A DNA stretch of 64,000 nucleotides from Eledone cirrhosa (lineage: Eukaryota), in assembly GCA_964016885.1 (NCBI GenBank), contig OZ024740.1:333374001-333438000 (forward strand), in the 5' to 3' direction. A program made the position numbers and the translations under genes. The notes under the pieces were generated by a model. That model was not told the DNA's origin. It did not search any database and saw only the letters and a list, made by a program, of their open reading frames with translations. Positions 23,427 through 47,620 of the stretch are shown here, piece after piece (position 1 is the first letter of the stretch; each line of letters begins with the position of its first letter).

Positions 23427-23760
23427 CGTAAAAGTTATATTTAAATTGTTGGGATACAACAAGCAAATATTTTTATAACTGATATAAAGCACTCAACAAA
23501 TATTTGGAGTAAAAATACGATATTAACAAATGGAAACTTTATTTATATAACCATATTTATTTCATTATACATATTTCATCCGGAAACTTCCAACGGTAAT
23601 GGTTGCATTTTTTAAGGGTGTGTCAATATTTATTTATAAAACTGATCTATATTATATTTTATCTGATGAAAGCACACCATAATTTAACTTGGTGTCCTTG
23701 GAATATGTATAATGAAATAAATATGGTTTTATAAATATAGTTTCCATTTGTTAATATCGT
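23427..23760. mobile_element. Non-autonomous fold-back pLTR module with HHR on the plus strand (23657-23714, GAAA mutated to GGAA), inside (TA)n
   Basis: Inverted arms about 23517-23577 and 23702-23760; homologous to 47255-47620. Confidence 0.85.
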
Positions 23761-24199
23761 GTATATATATATATATATATATATATATATATATATATAT
23801 ATATATATATATATATATATATATATATATATATATATATATACACATTTATATGCAATCCCAGAGAACGGTAACTAAATATTTCTCTTAAAACCTGCAG
23901 TATTATCTAAGTACCCAATTTGCTGCTTTTCCCCACCGACAATCATTAAAGAAAAAGTGTCTCCTATAGTTGTAAGTCTATTTCAAAAGTAATTTATTTA
24001 AACATATATCTTAGACATTATCCCTAGACCATTGCTAAAACTGGATATTTCTATGTCTACAGTTAATCCTTGGGCCTACATTTATTACTTGGATCGTTAT
24101 TATTTATTATGTACTTTAGTTATTGTCCGTCAGTTGACTAAATTGAAGGAGACTCGACTACACGCGTTACCGTAGATAGTTATACCATTTCCAGATGAA

Positions 24200-25750
24200 A
24201 TTGATTTTGATTTGGTTTATTCTCTGAGAGTAAATGTTTAGGAATCGGTAAATCTTATTTATGAACTTTATTTTGAGTTCAAACATTTCTGAGCGGGACT
24301 GACCCGTTGCATTAAAATCATCTTCATTGAACATACAATGCCAGTACAACAATGCATTCATTTAAAATCATAATATTTCTCTCCTTAAATATGTACTTTT
24401 GCGCCAAATATAGACAAAATATTTATCTATATCATTATTTGTGTTCATGTTTATCTAGATATAGTATGTACTTTGACATCCAAGTAATCTGAAAATTCAT
24501 TGCGAAACTTCAAAATGCTTGACGCCAATATGTAAAGAATATGATAGGAGTCACTAATAACAGTTTTAAAACAATAATTCTAAAAATGTTATTTCTACGG
24601 ATGGATAGCAATTCTGTAGATTCAAAGTATTGCCCATTTGATTGTACTGCCTACTTTTTTAGTTAAATTCCCAACTCTCTTGCATACCATGTTGCATACA
24701 ATGTTGGTAGGGCGACACAAACACGCCGAACATTGGTTCTAGTTATTGAAGAGTCGTTTCTTGCCTAGCCGTTAATAACGTTTCTGCTTTACAATTCGAT
24801 TGCTGACAACATTGAACAATGGACATGTGTTTCCATCTAATATAATTTATGTAATTCCTAATAAAAGAACTAATAACATGCATTCCATTATTAGATATTT
24901 TGAATGGTATACAATTTTAACCTAACTGCCGGTGTAATGACTTAATATTAAACTCAGCTTCGTGTGAAATTGTAGAATTCACTTGGGGAATATATACTTA
25001 ACGATTAATCCGTTATGTTTGCCAAAAATACTTGCAGTAATCAACATGCAGTTTGCTACACACTAATACATAATGGGTTAGAGATACATTCTGAGGCAAT
25101 ATTTTTGAATTTTGGGAGTAGAATTTCGTGCCGAGTTGTGTAGGATAAGCCTCAACCAAAGGCCCCCAAAGAGATAAACTAATTAATGACGCCATCCTTT
25201 CGATACCCATGTGCAAATGGTGTAGGCATTGTATAAAGTGTATCTATTGTCGTAGAAACACTAATGCGATTACTGAACGGGAGAATTCTGCTTTTGTTAA
25301 ACGAAATGTTTTAACGCATTTATAAATAAAGAGGGATTTTTCTTCCTAATGATCTATGCAAATTACACTCATGGTATCGAGTGAAACTCCGAAAACATGT
25401 TTAGTAGTGTGTATAAAATCATTTATGTTAGCAAGTAGATTTTCAGTAAGTGAGCAACCCAACTACGAATGATGACACTTCACATTCGAATAAGGACAAA
25501 GAAACTCAACATTTGGTATGATCTACTGTTTACAATTTTCAATAACAATAAATGTAACAGATAGAACAACTCAATGATGGAAAACTTGAGAGGAATTGCA
25601 AATGAATGTATATGCAGTGTGATGAGTGAAATGTGTCTTGAAGATTCATTCATGCAAATGAATTCGGACGCGTTGAGGTCAATAAATGACGGAAGCTGCA
25701 AGCCTATTAGAAATATACTCTGCTTAAGACAATCGCATCTAAATCTACAG
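24200..25750 (-). pseudogene. Possible highly decayed hAT-like transposase
   Basis: Scattered minus-strand peptides in the expected order: FGVSLDTMS, YQHCMQHGMQ (CxxH-like) and LDVK..STYY (like DVxTRWNSTY with a deletion); many stops. Confidence 0.3.
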
Positions 25751-27494
25751 ATCAGGTTGATTATTCTTTTCTAGCAATCCACCATTTCCATATACGTAGC
25801 ATCTGTAATGAATTTTGAATTTTAATGAACACGTAATAAACACAATACCAATTCAAAGGAAGTATCGTACTTACTTCTCGTGGACAGAACGTCGAACTGG
25901 AAATTGATACCGATTGTATTATACTTTTAATGGGGTTTCAGCATCTGAAGCAAGATTTGGAAAATAGCACAAAGCAGAAAATTTACGCTACAACGCTAGT
26001 AAAGGGAGGAGAGATTATTATAGCTTTGTAGATCTTAGAGAAGTGGTTTAAAACAGACGCAATCCACACTGTAACAGCCAATGAAAAATCAGATCGCAGA
26101 AATGAAACTTAGAACTACCACGTATGACAATGTATTTAACCAATATCTCTATAGATAGCCGTAAACATTTACCGTGAATGGACCTATCAGTTACATGGGC
26201 AATTATTTCATCGTTGAAAGAAATGATACCGAGTAATGTAACTATAATGAAATCGATGGTAGTTTGGAGTATTGCCGATGAAAGGATAATTCAAATGGCA
26301 AGAACGTATATCGGAACTATACAAACGGTTTATTGACACTGGTCAATAAAACATTCCTCGACTCATGGAATTTGTAGAAAGCAATCTGTAGATCGATCTT
26401 CCACAGGCATGCAGAATTATTTATTCGCTATAAACTAATAATCTACCACTCAGTAATAAAGCTACATTGAAGTAAATGACTAAGTTAACATAAGCTTGCT
26501 GAATAGGGGTGTGATAACACGAGTCTTCGATTTCGAGTGTCCAATAGGTATTATTTTCCTTTCATTAATATATTATCTAATAAACAAAGAATAAGCTTGT
26601 CTCACTTTAAATATACCCATACCAACATATTTGATACGTGACACTGTACATAATTATTTTACGTTTGTTTAATAATTCTGTAACTCCGTTTACTTATCGT
26701 TGATTTGGTAGGAACAATGATTATGATAAATGTATGTGGAATGCCAGAATGTTGATTCAAAGTCGTGTCGAAATGCATTTCCTTTAAGTTAAGGACAACT
26801 ATGAATGCAGGCGGTTGCTCAGCGTTCAAGACTTCCAGCTGTTGAAATATTCATTTTCTAATTCCCGTATTAGATATAGCTTTTTGCCCGCTGATTCCTC
26901 TATAGTGAGTAATACACAAAACTTTATTAGAAAATATACAGGAAGGACTCTCTCGTAAAGGATAGCAAGCTCTAGATGCAGATTACACCCACCATAGATA
27001 AAATGCTTGTAAAATAGAAATATGTAATGAAATATGTTCATGAAGATACTGTTTTATAATTATCGCATTTAGTATACCTAAACTAAATTCAGACACGTGC
27101 TATTATATATAAATCTGCTGCATCCTTAAATATAAGTTGAGCAACTAAAGCATACTACGGTTGTTGGTGAAGAATATTCTTTCCCTATATGAGTTTATAT
27201 AAAGGTAACCATGTAAATATACGGTTATGAATAAAAACAGGAGATTGTCTATGATAAAGATAGACAAACCAACTATCACTATATTATAAATTTACATCAC
27301 CAAGAAGAATATGCCGTTATAATGTTGGACGTTGTACACTTTTGAATCCCACAGCTTGGGATATTGGGAAAATATATATTTAGAGAAAATTATAAAAATT
27401 TGAAGACACACCAAATGTTTACCATTGAATATATATATATATATATTATAAAATAACTGGAGGCTAGACTGGTGTAATTCCTTAAAGGTTTATT

Positions 27495-27552
27495 ATACTA
27501 TGAACATTTCAATGACCGTGTTCAGTATGACGCCGGTGACATCATCAAGTAT
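27495..27552 (-). ncRNA. Hammerhead-like motif with a C3U core variant
   Basis: Minus strand reads atac-TTGATGA-tgtcACCG...CGGTcatt-GAAA-tgttcata-gtat. Confidence 0.5.
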
Positions 27553-46165: not shown

Positions 46166-46666
46166 TCATTATTGATTTCGCAAAATGCATAATATTTTTT
46201 CTTGTTGAAGGTAAGATGTTTTCCCGCAAATATTTGATTGAACTGTTTTGTTTCCACGCATGTATCTTTTGAAAATGTTATTTATTCGTTATAAAAATTA
46301 AATGAGAGCATTCTATATGTTGGTGGGCACCCTTCATCTACTGGCAACCAATATTCTTAGAGGCAGTCCGCCACTGTATATATATATATATATATATAAA
46401 GGGAGCAAAGAATCAGTGTTGCATCATATACATATTTAATTAAATATGTATATGATACAATACTGATTCTTTATTACCTCTATATTGTTATTATCCACAA
46501 GCATCGAGTACTCATGTCGGAATACCGCCTACGGACTCAATTAATTTGCATCTTTACTACTCATATATATATATATATGCTTAAACTTTAATCTGTTATT
46601 TTAATAAATAAATATATATATATATAAATTATTTAGAAGTGAAGCATATCAATTTGTCTCTGGATG

Positions 46667-46726
46667 TTTACTGAGGAGAGCAGGACATGATATTCCTACA
46701 CTTATTTAACTCGAAACATATTTGGA
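46667..46726 (+). ncRNA. Hammerhead-like motif with extended stem II
   Basis: ttta-CTGAGGA-GAG...CTC-GAAA-catatt-tgga in an island between (TA)n tracts. Confidence 0.55.
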
Positions 46727-47254
46727 TCTTAAAGTTTAAACTTATCTACGGAACAGGTTTGATTTTGAAATTTAAATGTGTCTAAACATCACGGCCTCTT
46801 GGCAATACAGTTCGTCTTCGTTGATTTATTATTTTAAATCGATATGGACAAACTGTAGTATAATAATTAGTATACTTCAATCTGGCTAAATTTTTCTTTT
46901 GCAATATATATACAGATGTGTTGGTATCTGTGATTCATCACATACATATTAATTTATATATATATATATATATATATATATATTTATTAAAATAACAGAT
47001 TAAAGTTTAAGCAAAGAATCGCTGCTTTCACCCTTATTTTAATAAGTATTTGCTCTACGGTACTTATATATTTGATATATATTTATCCTTATCGAGCCCT
47101 CTTTGGATTTAGTCTTCAAATTTATTATTATTACTATATATATATATATATATATATATATATATAAATATATATATATATATATATATATATATATATA
47201 TATATATATATATATATATATATATATATATATATATATATATATATATATATA

Positions 47255-47620
47255 TGTAAAAGTTCTATTTAGATTGTTAGGATACAACAAGCAAATATTT
47301 TTATAGCTGATATAAAGCACTCAACAATTAATTGGAGTAAAAATACGATATTAACAAATGGAAACTATATTTATAAAACCATATTTATTTCATTATACAT
47401 ATTTCAAGGATACCAAGTTAAATTATAGTGTGCTTTCATCAGATAAAATATAATAGAGAGCAGTTTTATAAATAAATATTGACATACCCTTAAAGAATGT
47501 AACCATTACTGTTGGAAGCTCCCGGATGAAAGCACACCATAATTTAACTTGGTGTCCTTGAAATATGTATAATCACATAAATATGGTTTTATAAATATAG
47601 TTTCCATTTGTTAATATCGT
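47255..47620. mobile_element. Non-autonomous fold-back pLTR module with intact HHR on the minus strand (47392-47448), inside (TA)n
   Basis: Inverted arms about 47345-47440 and 47525-47620; homologue of 23427-23760 with the centre inverted. Confidence 0.88.

Follow-up and report, generated by a model that had tools for sequence, protein, structure and literature searches.

The window analyzed here is a stretch of 64,000 nucleotides from the genome assembly of Eledone cirrhosa (GCA_964016885.1, contig OZ024740.1, positions 333,374,001 to 333,438,000 of the forward strand); all positions are counted from its first letter. It is AT-rich and microsatellite-rich and contains many retroelement remnants. 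Our subject is a pair of short fold-back modules within it, termed A (23428-23760) and B (47256-47620), which carry hammerhead-like motifs and which the original prediction had read as flip-flop isomers of one palindromic element.

Architecture of the two modules

Both modules are ordered tail, arm, centre, arm. TA runs are present at all four module ends, and no target-site duplication could be discerned. As had been claimed, a left flank, inverted arms and a right end are common to A and B: the flank, or tail, comprises 89 bp and is identical at 83/89 positions, the outer arm comprises 62 bp and is identical at 58-61/62 positions in pairwise comparisons of the four arms (one to four letters apart), and the right end reads aatatcgt, followed by the TA run. 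However, the arms are not the same over their whole lengths, as the left arm of A consists of 62 bp and is devoid of 32 bp of hammerhead stem II, whereas the arms of B comprise about 96-103 bp. The centre, predicted to be about 85 bp long and to lie in opposite orientations, indeed does so: it has 84 bp (23581-23664 in A, 47441-47524 in B), and 79/87 positions are identical when 23578-23664 is compared with 47441-47527 in reverse orientation. The predicted diverged and non-folded form at about 3095-3368 was also recovered, with an identity of 78-84% in BLAST comparisons. This unfolded copy reveals the natural order centre, hammerhead, arm, flank, which is followed by the minus strand of B; the plus strand of A follows it too, but without the flank.

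Reverse-complemented, A reads arm', centre', arm, flank', and B reads flank, arm', centre', arm. A turned round thus differs from B in the end that bears the 89-bp flank, and therefore the apparent flip is a one-sided tail at the other end. Module A consists of a tail-less long copy (23578-23760, plus strand) and a tailed short copy (23578-23428, minus strand), and module B consists of a tailed long copy (47527-47256, minus strand) and a tail-less short copy (47525-47620, plus strand). In each module, the long copy of an element of about 270 bases is arranged head to head with a shorter inverted copy, with TA runs on either side. The inner junctions are unlike. The short copy of A ends at the GAAA edge of the hammerhead with an overlap of one nucleotide, and that of B ends within CUGAUGA with an overlap of three nucleotides (ATC) with the 5' end of the long copy. 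The letters of A and B are 5-9% apart in every part, and the genomic flanks of the two modules are unrelated. Neither module contains an open reading frame (ORF); an ATG in the hammerhead core runs for 12 codons to a stop. Upstream of the unfolded copy, at 3085-3100, nine letters match its own GAAA region in reverse; an earlier short inverted copy may have left them, or the match is a coincidence. The features are compiled in Table 1.

Table 1. Positions of the module features and of tail swaps in other families of the window
Feature	Positions	Strand	Basis
(TA)n target left of A	23411-23427		sequence
A, tail of 89 bp at the 3' end of the short inverted copy, one-sided; distance from arm to TA 90 bp	23428-23516	-	comparison with B tail
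A, inverted short copy; 5' truncation at the GAAA edge of stem II, one nucleotide shared with the 5' end of the long copy	23517-23578	-	
A, long copy from the ATCCGG 5' end to the tail-less 3' end aatatcgt	23578-23760	+	5' end inferred from public runs
A, type I minimal hammerhead motif, core GAAA to GGAA (23701), predicted inactive	23655-23719	+	
(TA)n target right of A	23762-23854		
(TA)n target left of B	47135-47255		
B, 3' tail (89 bp) on the long copy	47256-47344	-	
B, long copy: 5' ATCCGG at 47527, centre, hammerhead, arm, tail; order as in 3095-3368	47256-47527	-	
B, minimal hammerhead motif of type I, complete; cleavage predicted between 47394 and 47393	47386-47450	-	
B, short inverted tail-less copy, 5'-truncated inside CUGAUGA; ATC overlap yields the CGGAUGA chimera	47525-47620	+	
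Short (TA)n target right of B	47621-47634		
Unfolded copy, about 80%, complete motif at 3170-3233, tail ends at TA-rich run	3095-3368	+	
ORF-bearing family: long tailed copy	from 38660		
ORF-bearing family: long tail-less copy with short tailed copy	to 49110; 47635-47714		
CTGAAGA family, tail swap	11125-11544; 27659-28336		
Third family, tail swap	12427-13306; 1725-2110		

The hammerhead motif of B comprises an 8-bp stem I, CUGAUGA, a 9-bp stem II with one internal mismatch, GAAA, and a 2-bp stem III, which sits in a self-complementary AUAUGUAU stretch. A strict type I descriptor matched two sites in the window (3178, plus strand, and 47442, minus strand) and none in 200 block shuffles; the pattern is beyond chance. 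Among the three copies of the motif 98% of the cells were paired, with 2 two-sided changes, and the covariation on these three copies was not significant (128/500 shuffles). The flip had been proposed to move the complete core from the plus to the minus strand. CTGATGA is found at 23663 on the plus strand of A and at 47442-47436 on the minus strand of B, as this proposal required, but the plus-strand motif of A contains GGAA instead of GAAA at 23700-23703 (A13 to G, 23701). Core changes abolish or strongly lower hammerhead cleavage (PMC2837043), and the motif of A is therefore predicted to be inactive. Within the modules, all core letters are kept only on the minus strand of B; they are also kept in the 3095-3368 copy. 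Judged from these letters, only these two would be able to cut, probably as dimers. Neither short arm holds a whole core. CGGAUGA, which had been taken for a variant core at the other edge of the segment, is the 5' end of the long copy joined to the truncated core; as a junction chimera without a stem I partner it was rejected as a ribozyme variant. The hammerhead is likely a passenger of the pseudo-long terminal repeat (pLTR) of a Penelope-like element (PLE).

The family in public sequencing runs

The family was quantified in four of 14 listed public runs, i.e. contigs of run X1 and raw restriction site-associated DNA reads of run X12 from one organism, and contigs of runs X5 and X6 from two further organisms. 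The reference for the placement of reads and contigs was the segment 47255-47540 only; the right arm of B beyond 47540 lies outside it. The family is very abundant: 5,667 contigs (X1), 29,058 reads (X12), and 60 (X5) and 22 (X6) contigs were placed on this segment, and their summed depths do not equal copy numbers. Sister families, seen at loose ends at 47412 and 47422, share the arm and differ in stem II; their core is CUGAAGA or CUGACGA. In X12 they are represented by 14,227 and 1,564 reads, and they are present in X1, X5, and X6 too. A depth peak at 47365-47394 results from the arm that is shared with these abundant sister families.

For positions 47515-47524, 47525-47534, and 47535-47540 the depths were 812, 194, and 6 in X12 and 101,778, 10,840, and 1.3 in X1; in the first bin, at the opposite edge of the segment, the X1 depth was still 47,562. 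Because copies with the B junction would match through 47540, this junction accounts for less than 1% of the read depth and for about 0.001% of the contig depth. Joints could be inspected for 15 of 19 cases, and 10 of these 15 listed joints change the strand, at at least eight distinct places. Neither the junction of A nor that of B is among them. Two joints start at 47527 (partners 47305 and 47494), and contig piece 8 of X1 also ends there. Altogether, five records use this one 5' base: A, B, two joints, and one contig piece. The depth of the family declines toward the 5' end and collapses after 47527, and we infer that the shared base (ATCCGG, 47527) is the 5' end of the RNA.

The tail-less end beside TA was found in 5,830 X12 reads and also in X5; X1 and X6 have the same end letters with no visible TA run. 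The tail-less end is family-wide, and therefore the right end shared by A and B is no sign of a shared unit. At 8/8 checked sites where B departs from the majority of the family (sites picked for this difference from a partial variant table), A has the majority letter, so that A and B have no shared derived state there. One X1 contig contained the same 32-bp deletion as A (skipping 47401-47434), at a depth of 17.9 versus about 10^6 at that place. The original prediction of a palindromic module that is amplified as one entity in two isomeric forms, whether through hairpin-primed copying or through recombination between the arms, is not supported by these results: the B junction is nearly absent and junction positions vary. 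Identical junctions in numerous copies of the two isomers were not seen in these runs, possibly from a relative (6/812 and 1.3/101,778 for B; A not among the listed joints).

Origin of the modules

Taken together, A and B are most probably two separate head-to-head insertions of a hammerhead-bearing PLE end, with the tail on opposite sides. This arrangement is a published insertion pattern and likely no new self-copying palindrome. Inverted 5'-truncated copies with a tail at either end have been published for PLEs (PMC8557442; PMC3846280), and inverted pLTRs and 3' extensions are routine in PLE curation (PMC8969392). The original prediction was right in that this is a PLE derivative that bears a hammerhead, has no ORF, and is present in two orientations.

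The modules combine two 3' ends that are 89 bases apart, one recurring 5' end (ATCCGG), and differing truncation points of the short copies. Each module would likely have been made in its own insertion event by a PLE protein. The endonuclease would nick a (TA)n tract on both strands. An RNA whose 5' end is fixed would serve as template for two cDNAs, and each of these could be primed at one of two sites, so as to include or omit the tail. One cDNA would reach the 5' end of the RNA, the other would stop early, and the two would be joined via microhomology of one to three bases. A long cDNA started at the tail site would yield a product like B, and a short cDNA started there would yield a product like A; no inversion would be needed. 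Transcription may begin at the fixed 5' end. The template may have come from a non-autonomous master, or it may have been the pLTR at the upstream end of a transcript from an autonomous PLE (a solo pLTR). The short copy of A has a tail and the long one does not; folding back of the long cDNA could therefore not have produced the short copy, and a second priming event is suggested. A purified PLE cuts and extends both strands of AT-rich DNA, two start sites of reverse transcription bound its tail, and its hammerhead activity is dispensable in vitro (PMC11167929). Penelope has an internal promoter (PMC2377424).

Several observations weigh against this explanation. TTTC precedes ATCCGG at both junctions, and four preceding letters would be shared by chance with P of about 0.011 (calculated post hoc). 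The 32-bp gap of A lies between two 5-bp direct repeats, and A could be the B junction plus a deletion. The tail of 89 bp exceeds the published 30-40 bp, and no autonomous partner with this pLTR was found within the window. No hammerhead model of Rfam matched the window or two sub-regions, and minimum-energy folds of monomers did not contain the hammerhead shape (z 0.45, -1.08, and -2.66); this folding failure is expected because stem III has only 2 bp, and it adds no support. The best public runs share at most 0.35 of the sequence words and possibly stem from a relative and not from the source species, no listed contig piece spans the segment, and the choice of the eight compared sites was not neutral. 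Hairpins can be under-read by short-read methods; other fold-back joints were nonetheless recovered in the runs. Furthermore, PMC3846280 favours self-priming and not two primings for head-to-head units.

The TTTC/ATCCGG context could also indicate that a fold-back sub-master (arm, centre, arm, with the B junction) arose in the lineage of the window and that PLE proteins copied it as one entity, which is the original idea put into PLE terms. Both isomers would then result from priming on either side, tail included or not, and A would have lost 32 bp between direct repeats later. The same deletion in an X1 contig, the fact that the B junction is the sole 3-nt microhomology site in the element, and the distance of only 24 kb between the two copies are in line with such a sub-master. 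We nevertheless consider it unlikely, because the B junction is so rare in reads and contigs, the deletion is confined to one contig of low depth, no shared derived state was found at the eight sites, and other families swap tails with unrelated junctions. The same low probability applies to a palindromic hammerhead mini-element of the window lineage that was itself the master, was copied whole by PLE proteins, and formed true isomers via priming on either arm; the runs used may be from a relative without such a burst.

A one-off event at a single locus ranks next and is also improbable. Arms of 62-103 bp with 91-95% identity, separated by a loop of 84-120 bp, could recombine, and the centre of one module would thus have been inverted after insertion, by recombination or by template switching between the arms. 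Such an inversion is not needed, as the form with the tail on the short copy exists in three other families of the window and has also been published, and the flanks of A and B are unrelated.

Very unlikely is self-priming, in which the inverted arm arises when one cDNA or an antisense template folds back; this has been proposed for rotifer Penelopes (PMC3846280). Module B alone would fit a fold-back at the 3-nt microhomology. However, the tail on the short arm of A is absent from its long copy, the same is true at 47635, 28099, and 1907, the junctions are devoid of a palindrome, and a spacer of 84-120 bp was kept. An assembly artefact at TA-flanked palindromes is the least credible reading: long TA runs lie beside both modules and such structures trouble short-read assemblies (PMC8557442), but A and B are 5-9% apart in every part, strand-changing joints of the family occur in raw reads, and each part matches the letters of the family. 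A segmental duplication of A and B was rejected on account of the unrelated flanks.

Two separate head-to-head insertions thus remain the preferred explanation. For the early stop of the second cDNA there is one lead, namely that it stalls at the ribozyme fold, which fits B, A, and a unit at 28099; unlike these three, most listed joints in the runs lie outside the hammerhead motif.

Related units and known systems

In the window 21 inverted pairs were detected, which were merged by hand into 17 units. In ten of the 17 units, one outer end lies no more than 10 bp from a TA run and the other bears a one-sided extension of 40-160 bp, whereas random placement of the units gave a mean of 0.1 and a maximum of 3 in 5,000 trials. 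Tails in the fold-backs of the window commonly have 40-160 bp, versus the 30-40 bp published for PLEs. A tail swap between the long and the short inverted copy was found in three other families, with differing loci (Table 1). The 'isomer' pattern is general to PLE ends in this genome.

The first of these families is the ORF-bearing PLE family (47635-49110, 38660-40900, and 43039-43421). It has broken frames with reverse transcriptase (RT) motifs at 39900-40901 and a GIY-YIG-like end at 47759-48601, and contains a CTGACGA core-like motif at 48865 (plus strand), 38955 and 43337 (both minus strand). The TA run to the right of module B is also where the copy 47635-49110 begins. At 47635 a 38-bp inverted copy has the tail, and at 38660 the long copy does. 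The ORF 47759-48601 resembles clusters in an Atlas feature search in which 13-19% of the members contain GIY-YIG and 25-28% contain HTH_animal, and we take it to be PLE-derived, partly on the basis of its motifs. Pfam yielded no family for any of the six ORF fragments (6/6) at E 0.01. The second family has a hammerhead-like CTGAAGA motif (11125-11544, 27659-28336, and 7810-7977; CTGAAGA at 11303, 28102, and 27850). At 28099, a short inverted copy starts three nucleotides before the core, with a TCA overlap, and resembles the B junction. The third TA-targeting family (1725-2110, 12427-13306, and 16213-16948) has a tail of about 140 bp and gave no match to the hammerhead descriptors used; two TAACCC repeats lie close to the far end of the copy at 12427-13306.

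Another fold-back (37288-37536) contains a minus-strand motif with a TTGATGC core (37388), in which stems I and III are as in the A/B family and stem II is different; the opposite arm has CTGATGC. Further fold-back units, several of them nested, lie at 3388-3823, 7347-7505, 12218-12424, 33397-33588, 35711-36116, 43437-44626, 44961-45435, and 46407-46472. GC-rich broken RT-like frames on the minus strand at 21808-23434 stop right at the TA run left of A. Pfam was blank for these frames, which are presumably of PLE origin, judging from their motifs.

Modules A and B share four features with the insertion units of endonuclease-containing (EN+) PLEs: an inverted 5'-truncated copy, a one-sided tail, a type I hammerhead, and an AT-rich or microsatellite target. 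As in the published units, long and short copies lie head to head, the one-sided tail is on either copy, the target is (TA)n with no discernible target-site duplication, and a minimal hammerhead is located in the pLTR (PMC8557442; PMC3846280). The modules differ from these units in having no ORF, a tail of 89 bp instead of 30-40 bp, and no identified autonomous partner; in addition, their long copies share one 5' base in the five records, whereas PLE truncation is usually variable. The RT plus GIY-YIG ORF of autonomous PLEs is not present in the modules, which are not similar to any ORF-bearing PLE of the window.

The motif is like the minimal type I hammerheads of metazoan PLEs, with a CUGANGA and GAAA core, a long stem II, and a tiny self-complementary stem III. 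According to PMC4209133, such motifs are widespread as single copies and as opposite-strand pairs 100-700 bp apart. Compared to what is described there, stem I has 8 bp here instead of the 4-5 bp in the minimal motifs of Schistosoma, A10.1-U11.1 closes stem II, and only one arm per module bears the core of this predicted ribozyme. Poseidon PAc of Anolis likewise has two start sites that bound the tail and AT-rich targets, and its both-strand extension would give both forms; unlike here, where the core ATG is followed by a stop after 12 codons, in PAc the tail is coding and stem II marks the start of the ORF (PMC11167929).

Metazoan non-LTR retrozymes are also AT-rich, ORF-less, PLE-related units of about 270 bases with a type I hammerhead (PMC7229834; bioRxiv 10.64898/2026.07.22.740005). 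Unlike retrozymes, the unit does not form tandem arrays in the window, no head-to-tail unit joint is among the listed joints, and the ends lie off the hammerhead cut site; a retrozyme was rejected for want of a tandem. Parvovirus flip/flop termini have two orientations of a loop between inverted arms, and miniature inverted-repeat transposable elements (MITEs) are short ORF-less inverted repeats. In contrast to both, the junctions here are neither conserved nor amplified, and the arms derive by truncation from one strand of a retroelement whose tail is present on one side only; on account of such arms, a MITE was also rejected. Pattern scans of viral contigs, metagenome contigs, and prokaryote genome contigs yielded 0 matches. 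Among the titles listed in literature searches, none dealt with the present family or with PLE ends that form flip/flop isomers; the family may already be catalogued in repeat databases or supplements (e.g. among the shrimp motifs of PMC4209133).

In summary, this is a high-copy PLE-end family with an already published head-to-head footprint. If a palindromic master were true, it would, to our knowledge, be the first case of a PLE copying an entire palindrome, with two isomers as the result. The way in which inverted units and one-sided tails are made by PLEs has been called unresolved (PMC8557442). A short and abundant family that has a single 5' end but two 3' ends represents a test set in which tails on long and on short copies can be counted. 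Mapping of the stops of the second cDNA together with these tail counts would allow two-strand priming and self-priming to be told apart, and no bench work would be needed.

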